A DNA stretch of 32,000 nt from Candidatus Pacearchaeota archaeon (GTDB lineage Archaea; Nanobdellota; Nanobdellia; Pacearchaeales; UBA284), in contig CP061211.1 in assembly GCA_026016245.1 (NCBI GenBank), forward strand, positions 630,001 to 662,000, in the 5' to 3' direction. The notes below the pieces were generated by a model, which was given only the letters and a program-made list of their open reading frames with translations, was not told the origin of the DNA and did not search any database. Positions within the stretch are counted from its first letter, which is position 1. Each line of letters starts with the position of its first letter. Of the stretch, positions 3,221 through 26,733 are shown in pieces. The position numbers were made by a program, and so were the translations under genes.

Positions 3221-3958
3221 TTATTCAAGAGGCTTACTACTCATGGTTTCGATTAAAGCGAGAACAAATCTCTCACTAGTTTCTAGGGTTTCACAGTCAG
3301 CTATCTCTAAAATATAGCAATAATCTTCTTGATGAATATAACTTTCATCTGTATCTGATTCTTTAAACAGGATGACGGTTGTTCCTTGCTCTGCATGCGA
3401 ACAATTTTTTATTTCATGAGTCACATTTTCATAAGTTTCTGATATATTACCTGCTAGATTATTTGCGAAAACTCCTTGTTTTTTTAATCCTAGTGCATCA
3501 ATGAAGTCACCAACACGCCATGCAGCCAAGACAATAGAATCTGTGCATTGTAAAGGCTCTGCTTCAAATGATATATAGACCATTCTTTGAGGCTTGGTTT
3601 TTACATCTGCTTGTATTTTTTCTAGTTTTCTTGGGTCATTTCTCAGGTTTAAAATATAGAAAAAAGTTTTATTTTCTACTGGGCGATAGATAGCTATTTC
3701 TGTTGAATAAATCATTAATCCCTTATGATCTGTTTTATGCCAGGTCATTCCTTTCCACTCAAAAACATTTCCTACAAGTCTGCCCCACTCAGCTGAAATT
3801 TCTTCTCTAAAAATAACATAGAACAAAGCCAGGGCCATTAATAATATAATTATTACAAGAGTCCAGATAATTCTTTTTGTGTTAATTCTCCTGGCTGTCT
3901 TGACTTCTTTTCCCCTATCTTTATCTTCTTTTTTAGGTTTTTTTTGTTTTCTTGCCAT
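3221..3958 (-). CDS. Membrane-anchored extracytoplasmic protein, unknown family (tandem paralog of 3966..4598)
   Basis: The track ORF 3221..3964 starts at a TTG; the first ATG is at 3958 (MARKQKK...). Basic N-terminus, one TM helix (IIWTLVIIILLMALALFYVIF). The C-terminal part aligns by eye with the neighbouring protein (IKNCSHAEQGTTVILFKE...CYILE versus IKSCDDATLEITIVEIKE...CLIIE). Confidence 0.6.
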   Translation of the reverse strand: MARKQKKPKKEDKDRGKEVKTARRINTKRIIWTLVIIILLMALALFYVIFREEISAEWGRLVGNVFEWKGMTWHKTDHKGLMIYSTEIAIYRPVENKTFFYILNLRNDPRKLEKIQADVKTKPQRMVYISFEAEPLQCTDSIVLAAWRVGDFIDALGLKKQGVFANNLAGNISETYENVTHEIKNCSHAEQGTTVILFKESDTDESYIHQEDYCYILEIADCETLETSERFVLALIETMSSKPLE

Positions 3959-9184: not shown

Positions 9185-9685
9185 TTAATTGGACTTGTAA
9201 TAATAGAATCTTAGCTTGACTATTATATCTTCTCCTGTTAGTGTAGGAAGAGGAACACTTGAACCAAAATAATTACCTTCTAGCTGGCCATTTTCTCTAT
9301 AAAATATTTCTTTAGTATTACTTATATTCATAATATAGCCATGAATATAGGCATCAGCTATACTTTCCTCAAGAAATCCTTCTAACATAGTATCAAGTTC
9401 AGTTTCTAAAAAATCGCAAGTGTTTATATTATTATCACAAAATCTGTTATTATTGCACTCTCTAGGTAGTTCTCTGATATTCTGAGGAGAGCCAGCTATC
9501 TTACATTCAGTTGTATAGCTTAGCATTGCTTGAAGAAGATCATCTAATTCAGCTTGTTTTGGCTCTATGATTTCAGATTTTGGGCGTAAGGCAAGGGCAA
9601 AGAAAACAAGACCTATGACCATGACTATAAGAACTATAATTACAAAGCCAAAAACTTCTTCTTGTGCTTTTTTATTGTTTTCCAT
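9185..9685 (-). CDS. Type IV pilin-like protein (class III signal peptide), Cys-rich extracellular domain (pilin-like D)
   Basis: MENNKKA-QEEVFGFVIIVLIVMVIGLVFFALAL: short basic leader, KKAQ cleavage-type motif and a hydrophobic helix. Five Cys in the mature part. Confidence 0.65.
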   Translation of the reverse strand: MENNKKAQEEVFGFVIIVLIVMVIGLVFFALALRPKSEIIEPKQAELDDLLQAMLSYTTECKIAGSPQNIRELPRECNNNRFCDNNINTCDFLETELDTMLEGFLEESIADAYIHGYIMNISNTKEIFYRENGQLEGNYFGSSVPLPTLTGEDIIVKLRFYYYKSN

Positions 9686-9722
9686 TTTTTCTTTTATTTA
9701 TTTCAGCTCCTTCTCTTTTTTA
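9685..9722. repeat. 38-bp perfect direct repeat, copy 1 (flanks HEPN/MNT pair 2)
   Basis: TTTTTTCTTTTATTTATTTCAGCTCCTTCTCTTTTTTA, identical to 10730-10767. Its first nt is the A of the pilin-like D ATG. Its last 3 nt form the HEPN stop codon. Confidence 0.9.
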
Positions 9723-10142
9723 CAACTTATCTAACAATTTTTTCATTCTAGCTAAAAAATCCTTAGCTATTTCTAAGCTGTGTTTAGCTTCTTCTTTGCT
9801 ATAAACATAGTGATAATCAGCATTTTCCCTTGAAGACAGGACAGCTTCAAAATCATTCACATATTTAAATTCAAGCTTGCCTTTTTTATTTAAGTCTTCT
9901 AAAACAACAACTATAGCAAAATGTCTTTTCTCTCTAAAGCCCAAGTTGAAAAGAACTGCCCTTGCAGAATGAAACATACTATAATATGCTTGGATAATGG
10001 CCCATTTCCAATCTTCTTCTTTAAATACTTTTTTTGACCTATTAAGATCATAAGCAGCTTCAGTAAATTCTTTTTCTACTAAGTCAGCTGAGGGTTTAAT
10101 TTCTATTAAAAATCTTTGTTTTAAACAGTCTTTAATATCCAT
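9720..10142 (-). CDS. HEPN-domain protein (canonical R-x5-H motif), toxin-type partner of MNT
   Basis: SSRENADYHYVY contains R-E-N-A-D-Y-H. 140-aa helical protein located 1 nt downstream of the MNT gene. Confidence 0.8.
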   Translation of the reverse strand: MDIKDCLKQRFLIEIKPSADLVEKEFTEAAYDLNRSKKVFKEEDWKWAIIQAYYSMFHSARAVLFNLGFREKRHFAIVVVLEDLNKKGKLEFKYVNDFEAVLSSRENADYHYVYSKEEAKHSLEIAKDFLARMKKLLDKL

Positions 10143-10143
10143 T

Positions 10144-10692
10144 TTACAGCTTTATCTTATCTTTTTCAACTCTTTCATAAAAAGCACTATCTTTTCTTGC
10201 AATCTGCGACCATTCCTGTTGAGAAAATATTTGTATTTTTATAGGCCTGTTAATACTGCTAGCTATTTTATTTATATCTCGAATAATTTGTTCTCTCTTT
10301 ATTTTTCCTATTATCAAAATATCAAGATCACTATCTTCAACATCCTCACCTCTTGCAGCACTTCCATACAAATAAGCTTTAACATTAAATTTTGTAGAAA
10401 GATCTCTGATTTTTGCTAGACTCAACAAATTATTAATTATTTTTAGTTGTTTTATAATTGGATTTTCTTTATTTAAGCTATATAACTTGGTTACGCCAAC
10501 TTTCTCAACTCTGACAAAATCTTTTTTTTCTAGTTCTTTTAACCATTTTGTTGCACTAGCTTTAGCTAATTTTACTTTTTGTTTTAGTTTTTTTTGATTA
10601 AGTTGAATGCTTGGTCTTTCAAGAAAGAAAGATAAGAGTTTTAAAAGTGCCTTGCCTTTAAAAAGTTCATTTAAGTAGGCTATTTGGTTCAT
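10144..10692 (-). CDS. wHTH-fused minimal nucleotidyltransferase (MNT)
   Basis: N-terminal wHTH-like region (KLAKASATKWLKELEKKDFVRVEKVG). Signature GSAARGEDVEDSDLDILII. Confidence 0.8.
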   Translation of the reverse strand: MNQIAYLNELFKGKALLKLLSFFLERPSIQLNQKKLKQKVKLAKASATKWLKELEKKDFVRVEKVGVTKLYSLNKENPIIKQLKIINNLLSLAKIRDLSTKFNVKAYLYGSAARGEDVEDSDLDILIIGKIKREQIIRDINKIASSINRPIKIQIFSQQEWSQIARKDSAFYERVEKDKIKL

Positions 10693-10729
10693 TTTAATAT
10701 TCTAATAAGTTCACCTTTTTAAACCTTTC

Positions 10730-10767
10730 TTTTTTCTTTTATTTATTTCAGCTCCTTCTCTTTTTTA
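10730..10767. repeat. 38-bp perfect direct repeat, copy 2
   Basis: Identical to 9685-9722. Contiguous with the 34-bp block at 10768-10801. Confidence 0.9.
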
Positions 10768-10820
10768 TTAATCAGAAACCAAGGTTTCTGATACTTTCCT
10801 TCCTTAACTTGTTTATTCAT
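10743..10820 (-). pseudogene. 25-codon ORF duplicating the N-terminal leader of pilin-like C (a truncated leader, or a uORF)
   Basis: Not in the ORF track. Translates to MNKQVKEGKYQKPWFLINKKEKELK*, compared with MENKIKKGKYRKPWFLINKKGQ... for pilin-like C. It starts 2 nt after the GNAT stop. Confidence 0.4.
10768..10801. repeat. 34-bp conserved block with 10-bp inverted arms (hairpin), copy 1
   Basis: TTAATCAGAAACCAAGGTTTCTGATACTTTCCTT. It contains ATCAGAAACC-AA-GGTTTCTGAT at 10771-10792. It matches 11735-11768 at 33 of 34 positions. Confidence 0.85.
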
Positions 10821-10822
10821 TT

Positions 10823-11242
10823 TCATAAATTTTTTGTTAACCAATACCAATCAAAATGGAATAAATCATTTTTCAATTCACCTTCTTTTTTATATCCATT
10901 CTTCTTATAAAATTTCAAAGCTTCTTTGTGCTTCTCTGAAGTAAACAGTTTAATTTTAAAACAATCTTTATTTTTCGCAATCTGTTCACATTTTTTTAAT
11001 AATTCTTGCCCTACCCCCTTATCTCTATATTCTTTCACTACTAACAATTCCTTCAATTCTGCAACCCTACCAATAATTCTGAGTCTGAAAAAACCAATTG
11101 CTCTCTTTTTTTGATAAGCAAGATAAAAAAATTCTTTTTGATTCCATGAAAACCCTCTTTCGATATTAAACTTTTTCCATGTTTTTTTTCCAAAGCTGCG
11201 CACTTTCTTCTTTGATACTTTTTTTATTCTTATTTTTTCCAT
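10823..11242 (-). CDS. GNAT-family N-acetyltransferase
   Basis: Acetyl-CoA motif A: LLVVKEYRDKGVGQELLKKCEQIAK. The C-terminal FYKKNGYK is typical of GNATs. Confidence 0.8.
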   Translation of the reverse strand: MEKIRIKKVSKKKVRSFGKKTWKKFNIERGFSWNQKEFFYLAYQKKRAIGFFRLRIIGRVAELKELLVVKEYRDKGVGQELLKKCEQIAKNKDCFKIKLFTSEKHKEALKFYKKNGYKKEGELKNDLFHFDWYWLTKNL

Positions 11243-11247
11243 TTTAT

Positions 11248-11787
11248 TTATGGCATGATTGTTGTGATTTTTATTTTAGCTACAACACATTTTGACTCTC
11301 TTGCATCAGTTTCCTCGCACAAAGGAATATAAGTTGAGTAAGTTATTGTAGATTCTTGGGTTAACTTGCTATAAACTGTGTATTTTTGCCCTCCACCATA
11401 GATTTCTTCTACAATAACTTTAGATATTGAAGCTTCCTGCCATATATTCTTATAATTATCTCTCAGATATGAATTTTCATCAAATGCCTTAAGCTTGTCT
11501 TTGTCAATGCAAGCTGTTTCAGTTGCTGTTCCAAATGAACTTGAGCATCTTAATTCTGGAAGCGAGGCAACTACTCTTAACATAGTAACTGTTCTTAACT
11601 CACGGATTTCACTTGCCATTTTCTGTAATTGTGCGGTTTGGAAGCGAGCAAAAAATAGGAAAAGAAGAGCAAATAAGAAAACTACTGCAACAAGAACAAA
11701 TGCCATTTCCTGAATTTTTATTTGTCCTTTCTTGTTAATCAGAAACCAAGGTTTCCGATACTTTCCTTTTTTTATTTTGTTTTCCAT
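11248..11787 (-). CDS. Type IV pilin-like protein with an unusually long leader (pilin-like C)
   Basis: The ATG at 11787 gives MENKIKKGKYRKPWFLINKKG-QIKIQEMAFVLVAVVFLFALLFLFF. The track start at 11808 would overlap the upstream gene. Four Cys in the mature part. Confidence 0.65.
   Translation of the reverse strand: MENKIKKGKYRKPWFLINKKGQIKIQEMAFVLVAVVFLFALLFLFFARFQTAQLQKMASEIRELRTVTMLRVVASLPELRCSSSFGTATETACIDKDKLKAFDENSYLRDNYKNIWQEASISKVIVEEIYGGGQKYTVYSKLTQESTITYSTYIPLCEETDARESKCVVAKIKITTIMP
11735..11768. repeat. 34-bp conserved block with hairpin, copy 2 (inside the pilin-like C leader codons)
   Basis: Single difference from copy 1 (C at 11756 versus T at 10789). On the mRNA strand this changes an A-U pair to G-U, so the stem is retained. 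Confidence 0.85.
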
Positions 11788-13294: not shown

Positions 13295-13333
13295 TTATAA
13301 AACTTTTTAAACTTTTCTTAGAAAGTTTTATAA
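13295..13333. promoter_or_regulatory. Divergent promoter pair: two BRE/TATA elements arranged as a 12-bp inverted repeat
   Basis: TTATAAAACTTT (13295-13306) and AAAGTTTTATAA (13322-13333) are exact reverse complements. The left one lies about 23 nt from the pilin-like A ATG (leaderless). The right one lies about 70 nt from the psmA ATG. Confidence 0.5.
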
Positions 13334-22515: not shown

Positions 22516-22539
22516 GGTTTTGTGAAGTCTTCGGTTGAT
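22516..22539. repeat. Terminal inverted repeat, left
   Basis: Exact reverse complement of 26710-26733. Starts with GG, as IS6-family ends do. Confidence 0.85.
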
Positions 22540-22559
22540 AAATTTAATAAAAAAAATAA

Positions 22560-22703
22560 TTAACCCTTCTTTTTTCTCGGTCTATTCCAATAAGGGCTTT
22601 TACATTTAGGGCATACTTTTGGCTCTTCCTTGCTATTTCTTCTTGGCATCCAAATATGACCACACCTCTCGCATTTATATCCCTCTATTTTTATCTTTGC
22701 CAT
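22560..22703 (-). CDS. 47-aa zinc-ribbon protein (CxxC ... CxxC)
   Basis: Not in the ORF track. Translates to MAKIKIEGYKCERCGHIWMPRRNSKEEPKVCPKCKSPYWNRPRKKKG. Confidence 0.55.
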   Translation of the reverse strand: MAKIKIEGYKCERCGHIWMPRRNSKEEPKVCPKCKSPYWNRPRKKKG

Positions 22704-22829
22704 ACCCATAAGTATATTATTTTTAGTATATAAACATTATTGCGATACAAAACATACCTTAAATTTCAATAGTCTTTATATATACCTAATACTATTATAT
22801 TATTAAGAATAGAGGTGATTAAATTCAAA

Positions 22830-23720
22830 ATGAAAAAAATTCAAGGACAAGAATACAAGGAAATTTCTGTCCATAAGGCAGATAAATGTCCTTACTGCAA
22901 GAACAAAAAGATAGTAAAGAATGGCTATCGCTTTAATCATACAAAGAAAAAACAAAGATATATCTGCAAGGAATGTGATAGAACTTTTGTAGTAGATGAT
23001 GGCTTCAAAAAGATGAAGTCAGAAAGAGAACTCATAACCTGCTGTCTTGATTTGTATATGAATGGAATGTCTTTAAGAAAAATTGAAGCTCATATTAATC
23101 AATTCTCACAAGAAAAAATAACTTACAGAAGCATACATAATTGGATTATTAGATATGCTAAACTGCTAAATTCATTCTCGCAAAGCTTTGATTTAAATTT
23201 ATCAAGACAATATCATACAGATGAGATTTTTGTTAAATGCAAGGGAGAACAGCATTATTTCTGGGATATAATTGACAAAGGCACAAGAATGCTCATAGCA
23301 ACACATTACAGCGAGAAGCGAGATAGCAAGAGTGCAAGAATGCTTTTCTTGAAGGTTAAGAACAGACCCTTAACACTATTTACAGATGGCTTACAAGGTT
23401 ATCAGAAAGCAGTAAGAAAGGTATTTGGAACTTTACATAAAGATAGAAAAGTTCAATACATTAGATTAAGAGCTAACAAAGACAAAAGAAATAATATTGT
23501 TGAGAGAATACAAGGAACAATTAGAGAGCGAATTAAAGTTATGAGGGCTTTCAAAAATAAAAAAGATGCTGAATTGTTTTTAGATTTGTTTGTTGTCTAT
23601 TATAATTTTATTCGTGTTCATCAAGGCATAGGAATGACACCAATAGAAAAAGCTGGTGTTGAGCTTGGGCTTGGCGAGAATAAATGGCTTGATTTGATTT
23701 ATAGAGCAAGAGGATTATGA
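22830..23720 (+). CDS. IS6-family DDE transposase with N-terminal zinc finger
   Basis: CPYCKNKK...CKECDRTF. DDE triad contexts HTDEIFVKCKG, LFTDGLQGYQKAV and NNIVERIQGTIRERIKVMRAF, then YNFIRVHQGI. The ATG at 22830 is preceded by AGAGGTGAT. The track start at 22815 is a GTG. Confidence 0.85.
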   Translation: MKKIQGQEYKEISVHKADKCPYCKNKKIVKNGYRFNHTKKKQRYICKECDRTFVVDDGFKKMKSERELITCCLDLYMNGMSLRKIEAHINQFSQEKITYRSIHNWIIRYAKLLNSFSQSFDLNLSRQYHTDEIFVKCKGEQHYFWDIIDKGTRMLIATHYSEKRDSKSARMLFLKVKNRPLTLFTDGLQGYQKAVRKVFGTLHKDRKVQYIRLRANKDKRNNIVERIQGTIRERIKVMRAFKNKKDAELFLDLFVVYYNFIRVHQGIGMTPIEKAGVELGLGENKWLDLIYRARGL

Positions 23721-26087
23721 ATTTATTTCTAAATATTTGGAATAATTTAAACCTTTTATATAATTCTCAATCCAATCCCAATCTACTTTTCTATTTTTAA
23801 AAGGCAGTTTAATAATTGTTTCTTTAATCCTATCCTGATTGAATTTTCTACCATAAGAATACCTATATTGTTCCATATTTATTATCGTAGCTAAGAATAA
23901 AGCCCTGAATACATTTAAATTGAATTTAGGTATTAATTTCTCTACATGGTCACTTGCAGAGAATTTAAGGGGTTGATAAGAACAAAATCCAATTGTAGCA
24001 CTATCAATTGTTAATACATTCCCCTCATCTGTATAAAAATTATAAAATCCTCTTACTCCGTTATTTGTTGCTTGTGTAGTTACATAAGGATACTTTCCCT
24101 CTTTATACCTTTCTTCAAGAATTTTTTTATCTGTTGTTTTTGAACCCTTAACATCAAATAATTTTTTTAATTGTATAAATTTCCATTTCTTGAAATCTAA
24201 TTTCAATTTTTTATTACTATAACTTTCCCTTGAAACTTTGTCTTGTAATTCATTATGATAAAGAAAAGTAGAGTATTCTCTTAATGTTTTCTCAAAATTT
24301 TTATCTGTTAAATTTTTAAATTTTGTTTTAATATATGGCTCAACTAACAACTCATCATCAAAATCTACGTGTCTTAATATAGAAAACCCTTCAATTTCTT
24401 TTTTATTGAAAAAACTATTTAACCACAATTTTTTTATTTTATCCCGATAAATACCATAATAATCTATTCTGCCATAAGGTCTTACTTTAATAAAGCCATC
24501 ATTTTTCCAGTAACCAAACCATGTTTTAGTATTTTTACTATGTTGTTTATGGGCTTCAAAAATTAAAATACAAGCAACTGCATTTGTATTGCTATCTTCA
24601 AATAAGGTATTAGACATACTCATCACTGCCTTTAAAGTATGTTTCTGTAATAATCTTTTTTTAACTGCTAAATTTCCTTTCTTTGTATTCATAGCACAAG
24701 ATTGAGGCACAATTGCTATACAAATTCCATTAGGTTCTAAAAAAGACAAGGCATTTTCAATAAAGGTTAATTCTTTATGTCCATTCCCTTTTGAATAAGG
24801 GGGATTAAGAAAAGCAATTGTTGGTTTAAATTTTTTAATTTCTTCCTCATTAATCTCAAAACAATCTTGCTGATGTATATTTGATTTTCCATCTCCCCTC
24901 AGCATCATATTTGAACAAGCAAGAACGAACATTTTAGGATTATTTTCAATACCTATTAACTGCTTTTTGTGAATGTGCTTTATTTTTGTTTTATCACCTT
25001 TTGCTTCTTCTTCCATTCTCCTCATAGCACTTATTAAAAAGCCACCAGTTCCACAGCAATTATCAATAATGATACTGTCTTTATTTACTTCTGCGAGGTC
25101 TGAAAATAACTCTGTTATATGTTTTGGTGTTAAAACTATTCCCAAACCACCATCACTATTAGCATACCTTAAAAACTCGTTATAGAATAAACCTAAAATA
25201 TCATGGAATCTATAATTTTGGGAAAATGGTTTGATATTATATTCTACTTCTTTAATTAAATCTTTTAAAAGAGTGTTTGGAGTTCCATCTTTATTTTTTG
25301 CATTTATAATTTTTGTATTTGTTCTCATAAAACCATAAGTCTGGACTATTGTATTTTGTTTAACTCCTTTAATATTATCTCGCTCTAATCTTTCTTTTAT
25401 TGTTGTTATTATCAAATCTGCTATTTCAAGGGGCTTTTCTTTTTTTAAATATGATAAACAAAAGCCCTCATCTTCAAGAGCCAATAAAATTCCACTAACA
25501 ATTAAAGGTCTAAGATTTTCTTCAAATTCAAAATCATCTCTTAATTTTTGATTTAATAATTGTGAATATTCTATTAGTCTTTTAAAATCAACTTTTTCTT
25601 TTATATCATCTTTTTTTAGAATACCAAAATAATCAACAAACTCATAAATTTTTTGTATTTTTAAATCTCTTGCATTTTTTTCTCTTCTTATTTGTAGGTA
25701 AGTATCAATCACAAGTTCTTTTTTAGTTTGTCCAGAAGCCCCAATAGAAATAACATCAAATTCTTTTGATAAATAAGAAGAATAAAGCAAAACACCATCA
25801 ACAGCGTATGTATCATATTTATCTAAATTTTTACTTTTATGGTATTTTATATCTCCTTTGCATTCTACCACAATTATTAAATCCTTATTTGGAAAGCTTA
25901 TAATAAATTCTGGATACCCCATTCCACTTCCTTTTTTAGAAGCGGTCTTAAGAAGTTTATCTATTCGTGGATTGTCTGATTTTTGTTCTTCTATAATAAC
26001 TGATTGTTCTGTTTCCTTTTCATATTCATTTTTATTTTTATATAAAATATCTCTTATAATCTTTTCAGTTTTTCTTTCATTAACCAT
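23715..26087 (-). CDS. Single-chain restriction-modification-specificity enzyme (Type IIG/IIC-like): PD-ExK nuclease, gamma-class N6-adenine methyltransferase and one HsdS-like TRD
   Basis: GYPEFIISFPNKDLIIVVECK (nuclease). IIDNCCGTGGFL (motif I) precedes FLNPPYSKG (motif IV). C-terminal TRD: WKFIQLKKLFDVKGSKT...YPYVTTQATNNGVRGFY. Confidence 0.8.
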   Translation of the reverse strand: MVNERKTEKIIRDILYKNKNEYEKETEQSVIIEEQKSDNPRIDKLLKTASKKGSGMGYPEFIISFPNKDLIIVVECKGDIKYHKSKNLDKYDTYAVDGVLLYSSYLSKEFDVISIGASGQTKKELVIDTYLQIRREKNARDLKIQKIYEFVDYFGILKKDDIKEKVDFKRLIEYSQLLNQKLRDDFEFEENLRPLIVSGILLALEDEGFCLSYLKKEKPLEIADLIITTIKERLERDNIKGVKQNTIVQTYGFMRTNTKIINAKNKDGTPNTLLKDLIKEVEYNIKPFSQNYRFHDILGLFYNEFLRYANSDGGLGIVLTPKHITELFSDLAEVNKDSIIIDNCCGTGGFLISAMRRMEEEAKGDKTKIKHIHKKQLIGIENNPKMFVLACSNMMLRGDGKSNIHQQDCFEINEEEIKKFKPTIAFLNPPYSKGNGHKELTFIENALSFLEPNGICIAIVPQSCAMNTKKGNLAVKKRLLQKHTLKAVMSMSNTLFEDSNTNAVACILIFEAHKQHSKNTKTWFGYWKNDGFIKVRPYGRIDYYGIYRDKIKKLWLNSFFNKKEIEGFSILRHVDFDDELLVEPYIKTKFKNLTDKNFEKTLREYSTFLYHNELQDKVSRESYSNKKLKLDFKKWKFIQLKKLFDVKGSKTTDKKILEERYKEGKYPYVTTQATNNGVRGFYNFYTDEGNVLTIDSATIGFCSYQPLKFSASDHVEKLIPKFNLNVFRALFLATIINMEQYRYSYGRKFNQDRIKETIIKLPFKNRKVDWDWIENYIKGLNYSKYLEINS

Positions 26088-26196
26088 TCTAAACCTTTTT
26101 TTATAAAGGGATGGGCTTTCTTAAATGTTCCGTATGGAATGTTATTCCTTTTTAGTCAATAAAAAATTATAAAAGGTTTGATTTTTAAATATAAAT

Positions 26197-26343
26197 ATGG
26201 CAGACATTTGTGAAAACTGTAAAAAGGCTATCAAAGATGATATGAAGAAATTAGTCAGTCAGAATGATAGCGAAGAAAATATTTATTTTTGTAGCTGGAA
26301 GTGTCATGAAGAGTTTGAAGAAAAAATTAACGGGAAAAAATAA
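26197..26343 (+). CDS. 48-aa TRASH/zf-FCS-like zinc-finger protein
   Basis: Not in the ORF track. Translates to MADICENCKKAIKDDMKKLVSQNDSEENIYFCSWKCHEEFEEKINGKK (CxxC ... FCSxxC). Its TAA is followed directly by the next ATG. Confidence 0.55.
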   Translation: MADICENCKKAIKDDMKKLVSQNDSEENIYFCSWKCHEEFEEKINGKK

Positions 26344-26676
26344 ATGAATAAAACCAAAATTAAAATTTTCTTGAAAATTACCAAAATAATAAATAAGAAG
26401 TTTTGTAAAGATAAGCTTGAGATTAATAAGATAGTATTTTTTAATGGAAAACACAAAGGTAAGAAAAATGATGGCTATTATGCAGTAAATAGTAAAATAA
26501 TAGGTATAAGCAAAAAAGAGCCATTATTTTGCCAGATTAGGACATTACTACATGAACTTACTCATGCTTACCAAAATCAGATTATGAATTGCAAAGGAAA
26601 GCATAATAAACAAGGAGAAAGAGTATTTTATAAATTTATGAAAGAGATAGATAAAACATTAAAGATTTCTGTGTAA
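26344..26676 (+). CDS. Small SprT-like HExxH zinc-metallopeptidase-domain protein
   Basis: LLHELTHAYQNQIMNCKGKHNKQGERVFYKFM: HExxH plus a downstream His, in an SprT-like arrangement. 110 aa. Confidence 0.5.
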   Translation: MNKTKIKIFLKITKIINKKFCKDKLEINKIVFFNGKHKGKKNDGYYAVNSKIIGISKKEPLFCQIRTLLHELTHAYQNQIMNCKGKHNKQGERVFYKFMKEIDKTLKISV

Positions 26677-26709
26677 ATATGATATTCACTTAATTTTTTT
26701 ATCCATTCC

Positions 26710-26733
26710 ATCAACCGAAGACTTCACAAAACC
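26710..26733. repeat. Terminal inverted repeat, right
   Basis: ATCAACCGAAGACTTCACAAAACC, the exact reverse complement of 22516-22539. Confidence 0.85.

Follow-up and report, generated by a model that had tools for sequence, protein, structure and literature searches.

A dispersed hairpin element lies in frame in pilin-type leaders of a Pacearchaeota genome, one copy probably orphaned by a toxin–antitoxin cassette

Two near-identical blocks of 34 nt in a 32,000-nt stretch of the genome of a Candidatus Pacearchaeota archaeon (assembly GCA_026016245.1, contig CP061211.1, positions 630,001 to 662,000; hereafter the window) are copies of a hairpin element that recurs in tRNA introns, RNase P RNA, 23S rRNA and messenger leaders of related archaea. 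Copy 2 lies in the leader-coding part of gene C, within a minus-strand operon of pilin-like genes that all have class III-type leaders with a KK[GA]Q motif; copy 1 lies in a small orphan open reading frame (ORF) between gene C and the pilin-like gene D. We give a probability of roughly two in three to the reading that a dispersed, self-folding hairpin module sits in frame in pilin-type leaders that are cleaved off, and that one of its copies was orphaned by the arrival of a toxin–antitoxin cassette. What carries this reading is the membership of both blocks in one family, the contexts in which the other members are found, the insertion seen against empty leaders of orthologues, the covariation of the stem, and the reconstruction of the leader of gene D.

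The blocks, at 10768-10801 and 11735-11768, agree at 33 of 34 positions, the sole difference being T at 10789 against C at 11756, as a first-pass annotation of this stretch had reported. On the minus strand both read AUC(A/G)GAAAC-CUUG-GUUUCUGAU, and the minimum-free-energy structure given by RNAfold is the 9-bp hairpin with a 4-nt CUUG loop that had been proposed (-8.8 to -11 kcal/mol, with modest fold z-scores of -0.9 and -2.0 in 76-nt contexts); the variable A or G forms an A-U or a G-U pair, and the pairing is preserved, as had been said. A genome search for the 22-nt palindrome, which the annotation had recommended, finds only these two sites in the window and in the single 710,724-bp contig of the genome, with up to three mismatches allowed and a shuffled expectation of 0. 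The leader codons around the blocks have diverged, 8 of the 21 nt between ATG and block differing between the copies. The hairpin had been placed at +29 to +50 from both ATGs: this stands for gene C (ATG at 11787), whereas the small ORF starts at 10826 and the same offset holds from its second ATG at 10820. Copy 1 does abut, on its downstream side, the 38-bp repeat of the toxin–antitoxin cassette at 10730-10767.

To describe the stem, a covariance model (R1) was built from ten copies of the element, and 35 copies were fitted to its structure in an alignment (A3). In this alignment 98.4% of the cells are paired and six of the nine pairs have changed on both sides (14 cells), counts that lean towards the stem because of the way in which model and alignment were made; the observed covariation is reached in none of 500 shuffles, and no slid register comes close. 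Compensatory variants appear in individual rows as AUUGG/CUAAU, AUAAG/CUUAU, AUGAG/CUCAU and GGGAAC/GUUCC. The covariation analysis that had been called for thus returns, across the family, a stem that covaries, and the window copies score 62.4 bits (copy 2) and 59.9 bits (copy 1) with the model. The block is a real nucleic-acid hairpin element and not a chance palindrome. The loop varies from 3 to 13 nt among copies, as one would expect of a folded single strand more than of a duplex operator. A K-turn/L7Ae site, a box C/D motif and a hammerhead core (CUGAUGA) were considered by inspection only and set aside: G-A/A-G next to a 3-nt bulge is absent, and CUGAUGA is not conserved across the copies. 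The element itself has no match in Rfam even at E up to 5, and we found no description of it there or in the literature, the literature search being limited and an earlier description possible.

The element measures ~30 nt and consists of a purine tail, AAGGAA(A/G)GU (GGAAAGU in the window copies), and the 9-bp hairpin AUCGGAAAC-loop-GUUUCUGAU. Its relatives were collected by scanning public genomes and metagenomes with the pattern ATCNGAAACCNNGGTTTCNGAT, the bulk of whose matches are scattered chance matches in bacteria, and by searching model R1 against 151 genomes of the order and 151 of the class; genomes are given below by G numbers (G000 is the genome under study, G002 another of the same genus) and contig loci by L numbers (such as the Logan contig L137). 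The archaeal matches of the pattern scan have the same purine tail in common and lie in introns of tRNA-Gln(UUG), tRNA-Leu(CAA) and tRNA-Leu(UAG), and directly before position +1 of tRNA-Gly and tRNA-Phe; a copy before tRNA-Gly on the metagenome contig L083 is identical to the gene C copy over 29 of 29 nt. Near-identical elements are seen in the introns of different tRNAs, namely Gln(UUG), Leu(CAA), Leu(UAG), Gly(UCC) and a tRNA with the anticodon CCU, and protein identity between G000 and the archaea of the same order that carry matching copies is ~40-57%. Model R1 is positive in 15 of the 151 genomes of the order, mainly in one other family (f8, four of five genomes), with at most six copies per genome, and in 3 of the 151 genomes of the class. 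The family is dispersed and of low copy number, and among the sampled genomes it is confined mainly to this DPANN order, the public records of which are labelled Woesearchaeota or Pacearchaeota.

G000 holds three copies in total, the third of which is diverged and lies within the RNase P RNA, 140 nt before the window (C1:629819-629861; AAGGAAAGGUAUUGGAAAACCUUGGUUUUCUAAUG), with a longer stem that covaries. The element occupies one common site of the RNase P RNA in G002 and G000, and a different site, near the 3' end, in G048. In G000 this copy separates the P4/P5-P7 strand from P8. Because of extra hairpins, of which this copy is one, the gene (C1:629600-629950, L129) scores only 47 bits against Rfam RF00373, short of the gathering score of 84. 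In the 23S rRNA of G035 the element lies in an expanded part of the helix-68 region and shows the compensatory changes GGGAAC/GUUCC. Among messengers, model R1 finds it in G045 and G027 ahead of the ribosomal protein L1 gene, within the 5' untranslated region (5'UTR), and two further genes have it in a 5'UTR that ends at the AUG. In a few cases (L113, L119, L104) the copy is antisense to the tRNA that hosts it, an orientation that suggests insertion of the element as DNA. At some messenger sites (L112, L134, L123/L114; G028:C5:8853, G045:C1:566450, G045:C1:303142 and G027:C12:527) the element separates a GGAGG-like tail from the AUG of its host and fills the space between them exactly, the hosts being an MCM-like gene, a gene of unknown identity and L1. 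A folded hairpin there would give normal spacing between ribosome-binding site and start, which would explain the kept pairing at those sites.

The first-pass annotation had named many random copies of the palindrome outside leaders, or a stem not conserved in homologous leaders, as what would speak against its reading of the block. Judged in this way, a dedicated signal of pilin leaders fails: most copies lie in tRNA introns, RNase P RNA, 23S rRNA and 5'UTRs, and most homologous leaders lack the element. Gene C is conserved across the order, with a match in 59 of 61 genomes, and the matches begin at about residue 16-19. The element is absent from the C leader in 19 of the 20 relatives' loci examined (G003, G001, G006 and 16 others), and these element-free leaders have the form M-x(0-15)-NKK[AG]Q followed by [ILF]KIQEMAFVL; a long C leader occurs among the 20 only in G002 (MKNKIKKGKYRKPRFLINKKAQ), to which a protein-database search added L137. 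Aligned as DNA, the leaders reveal a 30-nt insertion (GGAAAGTATCGGAAACCTTGGTTTCTGATT) between MENKIKK and the ancestral NKKGQ, with the frame kept: the C leaders of G000, G002 and L137 are filled and the other 19 are empty. Looked at as a possible MITE, with terminal inverted repeats and a target-site duplication, the element is itself a single palindrome, and its gene C copy is flanked by an imperfect 9-nt direct repeat (AAAAAAGGA and AAGAAAGGA); this repeat is rich in A, and the ancestral KKG motif is encoded by it as well. For gene D the element is present in the leader of L137 and in that of neither G002 nor the homologue P0014, and for gene B it was found in G009 (MYKKRESIGNRRFLINKKA followed by VIEFGW). 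A conserved leader specific to pilins was rejected because most orthologues are without the block. One gene C homologue of different build, P0007 (JGI, 214 aa), has a 40-residue N-terminal zinc-ribbon-like extension (CPKC...CKEC) before KKGQ; it is labelled TFIIS/RpoM by its source, and the extension is either a fusion made in gene calling or a real one.

The G009 copy is of a different subtype (GGGAAAGC...CCGUAGG), identical at 30 of 31 positions to intron copies in G005; its loop is 1 nt longer, so that the 5' half is read in another frame (RESIGNRRFLIN; RESIGNRR). This, together with the presence of the element in non-coding RNAs, indicates that the conserved thing is a nucleotide element and not a peptide. 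A conserved leader peptide was another of the roles first suggested; it is very improbable that the block is kept because KY(Q/R)KPWFLINKK adds a working part to the class III signal peptide, for instance for recognition by the prepilin peptidase or for its timing. FLIN is kept in all six leader copies, and the YQKPWFLINKK of gene D in L137 is identical to the G000 copy despite a CTG to TTA change that breaks a pair; yet the same nucleotides stand untranslated in tRNA introns, RNase P RNA and 23S rRNA, the peptide has a W to R change in G002 and reads GNHQKHWFLIN in gene C of L137, and in most homologues the leader has 3-15 residues and no such stretch. The first interpretation of the block is thus supported in part: it is a real hairpin element with a covarying stem, and it is neither specific to pilin leaders nor conserved as a peptide.

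The orphan ORF that carries copy 1 is, to judge from the reconstructed sequence, the original 5' end of gene D with its long leader (table 1). Deleting 9677-10769, that is the cassette and one copy of the 10-nt repeat, fuses the ORF and gene D in one frame (MKMNKQVKEGKYQKPWFLINKKAQEEVFGF..., MKMNKQVKEGKYQKPWFLINKKAQEEVFGFVIIV...), and this restoration implies that a 1083-nt segment split the D leader with a 10-nt duplication. The reconstructed leader has the same build as that of the intact gene D of L137, which lies adjacent to C and carries the element (MKKNNKKSKRRYQKPWFLINKKAQEEIMGFVIIV; start MKKNNKKSKRRYQKPWFLINKKAQ followed by EEIMGFVIIV); a short leader is seen in another D homologue (MKQTNKKAQ followed by EEVMGF). 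In both G002 and L137, C stands next to D with neither the GNAT gene nor the cassette between them. Gene D appears now to start at an ATG supplied by the inserted segment, and the 14 nt around this start (9688-9675; AAAATGGAAAACAA) are identical to the start region of gene C (11790-11777). The 38-bp repeats could then be read as internal, near-terminal repeats of the 1083-nt insertion. The alternative of an upstream ORF at copy 1, which after a 1045-nt deletion would share the frame of D but run into a stop, is superseded by the 1093-nt deletion guided by L137. The GNAT gene was also considered as the carrier of copy 1 and dropped: it is specific to this lineage, the matches among 60 relatives being distant ones of 37% identity at most, and in no relative does it stand beside a pilin leader.

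Table 1. Features of the locus, with positions counted from the first nucleotide of the window.
Feature	Position	Strand	Remarks
Gene A	13272-12718	minus	Pilin-like
Gene B	12703-11789	minus	Pilin-like
Gene C	11248-11787	minus	Pilin-like, 179 aa; leader MENKIKK-[element]-NKKG/Q, then IKIQEMAFVLVAVVF; carries copy 2
Element copy 2	11737-11766 (hairpin proper 11738-11759)	minus	30-nt insertion GGAAAGTATCGGAAACCTTGGTTTCTGATT; gene C leader codons 8-17, GKYRKPWFLI
GNAT acetyltransferase gene	10823-11242	minus	Pfam PF00583, E = 6e-17; between gene C stop and old gene D start
Orphan ORF	10743-10826	minus	27 codons, MKMNKQVKEGKYQKPWFLINKKEKELK and stop; carries copy 1; ATG overlaps GNAT stop codon
Element copy 1	10770-10799 (hairpin proper 10771-10792)	minus	GGAAAGTATCAGAAACCTTGGTTTCTGATT, GKYQKPWFLI
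Left 10-nt direct repeat	10760-10769	minus	AATAAAAAAG; N-K-K of old leader
Inserted segment, 1083 nt	9677-10759	minus	MNT and HEPN; divides old D leader between LINKK and AQ
MNT	10144-10692	minus	Inside inserted segment; perfect 38-bp direct repeats at 9685-9722 and 10730-10767
HEPN	9720-10142	minus	Inside inserted segment
Right 10-nt direct repeat	9667-9676	minus	AATAAAAAAG; N-K-K of present D leader
Gene D	9185-9685	minus	Pilin-like, 166 aa; present short leader MENNKKA/QEEVFGF; homologues in G002, L137, P0014

The leaders of genes A to D and their homologues carry the motifs of class III signal peptides (a basic leader, a [KR][GA]/Q-type site and a hydrophobic helix) and are predicted to be cleaved; an A24 prepilin peptidase is encoded in G000 (PF01478, 65.6 bits, C1:610022-610396). 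The leader of gene C resembles other archaeal class III leaders in its positive charge, in KK[GA]/Q followed by a hydrophobic helix, and in the A24 peptidase found in the genome. It differs in having 21 residues with a hydrophobic WFLI, ten of them the translated element, where homologues have 3-15.

We suggest the following course of events. The usual homes of the element are sites at which a structured RNA can accommodate one more compact hairpin. They comprise tRNA introns, in which a relaxed bulge-helix-bulge (BHB) motif has its central helix stacked against the 3' strand of the element, the base directly 5' of tRNA position +1, the sites where RNase P RNA and 23S rRNA are expanded, and the variable part of the L1 mRNA leader. 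In the genus of G000 it would have been inserted in frame into the leader of gene C, immediately ahead of the N-K-K-[AG]-Q cleavage motif, and the arrangement in gene D was probably copied between the two similar leaders. The ten extra residues would fall in the part that class III signal peptidase removes, so that the insertion would be tolerated, translated and left to drift in some lineages; the ribosome would read through the element, and the leader would afterwards be removed. Next, in G000, the GNAT gene would have arrived between C and D, and the 1083-nt MNT/HEPN cassette would then have entered the D leader with a 10-nt duplication, leaving copy 1 behind in the orphan ORF. Spread of the element itself would be by copying or transposition at the DNA level, as has been proposed for archaeal tRNA introns.

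The state of the copies in the three genomes bears on tolerance as against selection. G000, G002 and L137 are about equally distant from each other. The gene C copy of L137 has two broken pairs (seven of nine kept) and four amino-acid changes, its gene D copy has lost a pair through the synonymous change of CTG to TTA, and neither folds as a hairpin any longer. About ten differences separate the two copies of L137, whereas those of G000 are identical at 33 of 34, which points to recent copying or gene conversion in G000; exchange of this kind between adjacent leaders is the best account of the 33/34 identity. The block had at first been held to be under selection or gene conversion, and it is the second of these that the data favor, the evidence for selection on the hairpin within leaders being mixed. 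Between gene C of G000 and that of G002, no part is better conserved than the block, which has one difference in 30 positions, as compared with 128 in 510 elsewhere (Fisher p = 0.004), and silent third positions differ at none of nine in the block and at 53 of 124 in the rest (p = 0.011); the only difference in the block, W to R, lies in the loop.

It should be noted that several of our observations count against mere tolerance or against a mobile family. Conservation of the block that includes its silent sites, at p of about 0.002-0.01, fits a function in mRNA or DNA better than a neutral passenger. Presence in the leaders of three pilin-like genes (B, C and D), and the position of all mRNA-associated copies within ~60 nt of a start codon, could both mean selection. 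Copy number is low, no mobilizing gene was identified, and we infer mobility from the distribution alone; three loci (L125, L131, L135) were not confirmed as tRNA introns by a deletion scan with ARAGORN, and their contexts are unannotated. To these is added the leaning of the covariation counts already mentioned, R1 having been built from element copies and A3 fitted to its structure.

An alternative is that the hairpin is a working cis-element of the pilin-like operon mRNA, tuning elongation, stability or processing of C and D, possibly bound by the same protein that recognizes the hairpin in stable RNAs, and kept by selection. We regard this as unlikely overall, and as a serious minority possibility for the hairpin in G000 and G002. 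It would account for the low divergence of the block, for the silent sites without change and for a single non-synonymous change that falls in the loop, as well as for recurrence in the leaders of B (in G009), C and D (in this genus), for mRNA copies next to start codons and for a stem that covaries across the family. Nevertheless, 19 of the 20 relatives' C loci do without it in the leader, both leader copies of L137 lack a stable fold, copy 1 is now detached from any pilin body, and unusual conservation is not confined to the block but covers the entire stretch where gene B ends and gene C starts. Translational control, which had been envisaged, would not act by occlusion of the ribosome-binding site or start codon: in both copies the hairpin, at +29 to +50, lies beyond and overlaps neither. 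An insertion that is tolerated, and drifting in some lineages, remains our preferred account of the leader copies.

Acting as DNA, the palindrome might be a hot spot of recombination, serve as an attachment-like site or be bound by a dimeric protein. Such a role, among those first proposed, would explain why the GNAT gene and the MNT/HEPN cassette were inserted just here. Upstream of copy 1, the GNAT gene reaches as far as the start codon of the orphan ORF, 33 nt from the hairpin; downstream, the toxin–antitoxin segment begins 11 nt from it; and neither insertion is present in G002 or L137; the antisense family members would fit insertion at the DNA level as well. This is, however, a single locus at which adjacency may be coincidence, and the junction of the toxin–antitoxin segment is a 10-nt A-rich repeat, not the palindrome. 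Loops of 3 to 13 nt with compensatory changes in the arms are what base pairing predicts and not what dimer half-sites do, and no integrase or transposase adjoins, the nearest mobile element noted in the window being at 22516-26733. We therefore hold a DNA site to be improbable, more so than the cis-element.

Mobilization of the type known for REP palindromes and RAYT transposases was rejected: the Y1 transposase domain (PF01797) has no match in G000, G002, G035, G045 and G048, whereas control genomes were matched. REPs and the present element are alike in being imperfect palindromes of 20-40 nt with a short conserved single-stranded tail on one side; they differ in that the Y1 enzyme (IS200/IS605-like) is missing from these five genomes, in the low copy number of the element, and in that REPs are typically extragenic.

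Since many copies lie in introns, we also considered whether the pilin copies are spliced. The BHB motif consists of two 3-nt bulges with a 4-bp helix between them at the exon-intron junctions, and its relaxed form has at least one bulge beside a helix paired with the exon. In the tRNA-Gln of G035, traced by hand, the hairpin passes on its 3' strand directly into a 4-bp helix with bases of the anticodon loop (CUUU/GAAG), beyond which come a 3-nt bulge and the anticodon stem. The 5' splice site falls within a large 5' bulge made by the purine tail, and the whole is a relaxed BHB arrangement. The flanks of the gene C copy (AAAAAAAGGAAAGU and UAACAAGAAAGG) are purine-rich and the fold shows the hairpin alone; copy 1 could pair GUUA/UAAU, but has no outer helix. 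Purine-rich flanks leave neither a central 4-bp helix nor an outer helix, so the window copies lack the motif; a spliced BHB intron in the pilin mRNA was rejected for this reason, and the mRNA copies are probably not spliced. A known case of a BHB intron in a protein-coding mRNA is that of the cbf5 pre-mRNA of Crenarchaeota. The pilin copies resemble it as intron-type sequence within an ORF, in a genome that encodes a tRNA splicing endonuclease (PF01974, C1:603416-603676, 97.6 bits), and without the 30 nt the ORF would stay in frame and begin with a short leader (MENKIKKNKKGQ); they differ in their purine-rich flanks, which lack the defining motif.

A role as promoter spacer of leaderless tRNAs was dropped too. 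TTTAAA stands 29 nt before tRNA +1 in L083, and the arrangement is inconsistent at other 5'-flank copies and misfits the compensatory changes (L083 against L126).

The closest precedent for the intron copies is found in the Thermoproteales, for which families of tRNA introns are taken as products of intron transposition at the DNA level, in the account that a review (PMC4090602) gives of Fujishima et al. (2010). Our element is like these in occurring in the introns of tRNA-Gln, tRNA-Leu(CAA), tRNA-Leu(UAG), tRNA-Gly(UCC) and others. It is unlike them in that it belongs to another phylum (DPANN), the shared unit being the tail and hairpin within introns of differing length and not the whole intron, and in that it also occurs in RNase P RNA, 23S rRNA, mRNA 5'UTRs and coding leaders; the window copies in particular lie in coding leaders, not tRNA genes, and cannot form a BHB.

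The in-frame copies have another parallel in the Rickettsia palindromic elements (RPEs), which Ogata and colleagues are said to have described in 2000. RPEs are 100-150 bp long and present in tens to hundreds of copies per genome. Both are short palindromes that lie in frame in translated genes as well as in RNA genes and are tolerated where an added loop or surface segment is harmless. In contrast to RPEs, the element has ~30 nt and at most six copies per genome, and its host segment is a leader that is cleaved off and not part of the mature protein.

A bolder version, which we put forward only tentatively and believe to be rather doubtful, is that the element is a still-active, self-folding insertion module that moves between stable-RNA genes, mRNA leaders and signal-peptide regions of this DPANN order, an archaeal counterpart of the RPEs that is related to transposing tRNA introns. 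Such a module would survive where its hairpin is harmless and would have become necessary in some hosts, for example by holding a GGAGG-like tail near the AUG or by supplying the intron-side helix of relaxed splice sites. A stronger form still would have it removed from the pilin mRNAs at the RNA level without a canonical BHB motif.

Within the reading that we prefer, that of a dispersed module sitting in cleaved leaders, a single 30-nt unit would join two things that have been described separately, the movement of introns among tRNA genes and the in-frame colonization of genes by palindromes. It would bear on how the reduced genomes of ultra-small archaea gain tRNA introns and expansion segments of their RNAs, and its filled and empty sites offer natural material for studies of mechanism. 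For annotation, unusually long class III leaders can be evolutionary insertions rather than a new class of signal, and small ORFs like 10743-10826 can be the heads of genes orphaned by the insertion of a cassette.

Some further observations concern the surroundings of the element. The L1 leader is conserved across the order, with a TATA box, (U)CCGUUAUUACUAC, a variable hairpin region and GUAGGAGG-AUG in most of 29 genomes, and the element's hairpin is found there only in the variable middle, in G045, G027 and G040. The leader of G000 (C1:550430-550540, L139; the others are L140-L168) reads TTCAGGAAGG followed by TGGTAGGAGG, without the hairpin. Mimicry of the L1 binding site was rejected as the role of the element, the conserved leader motif existing order-wide without the hairpin. 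The conserved leader is similar to a stretch, UAGGAGAGAUGAA, in the L1 stalk of 23S rRNA (L138, ~3620-3700), and is itself probably an L1 autoregulatory mimic.

None of the tRNA introns of G000 (present in ~14 of its 44 predicted tRNA genes) carries the hairpin. Those of tRNA-Arg(UCU), tRNA-Gly(CCC) and tRNA-Gly(UCC) share another hairpin module, AAUAAGGGCA(A/U)(G/A)CCCUUAUCAACCC, at C1:23773-23881, 143411-143521 and 469449-469565, a second case of intron sequence common to different tRNAs in this genome. Finally, the sequence GAAA(G/A)GTTTAAAAAG occurs on the minus strand at 10715-10729 and 13303-13317, ~35-45 nt upstream of the starts of MNT and gene A, and looks like the consensus of the BRE/TATA promoter of this organism; its presence ahead of MNT suggests that the inserted toxin–antitoxin cassette carries its own promoter.

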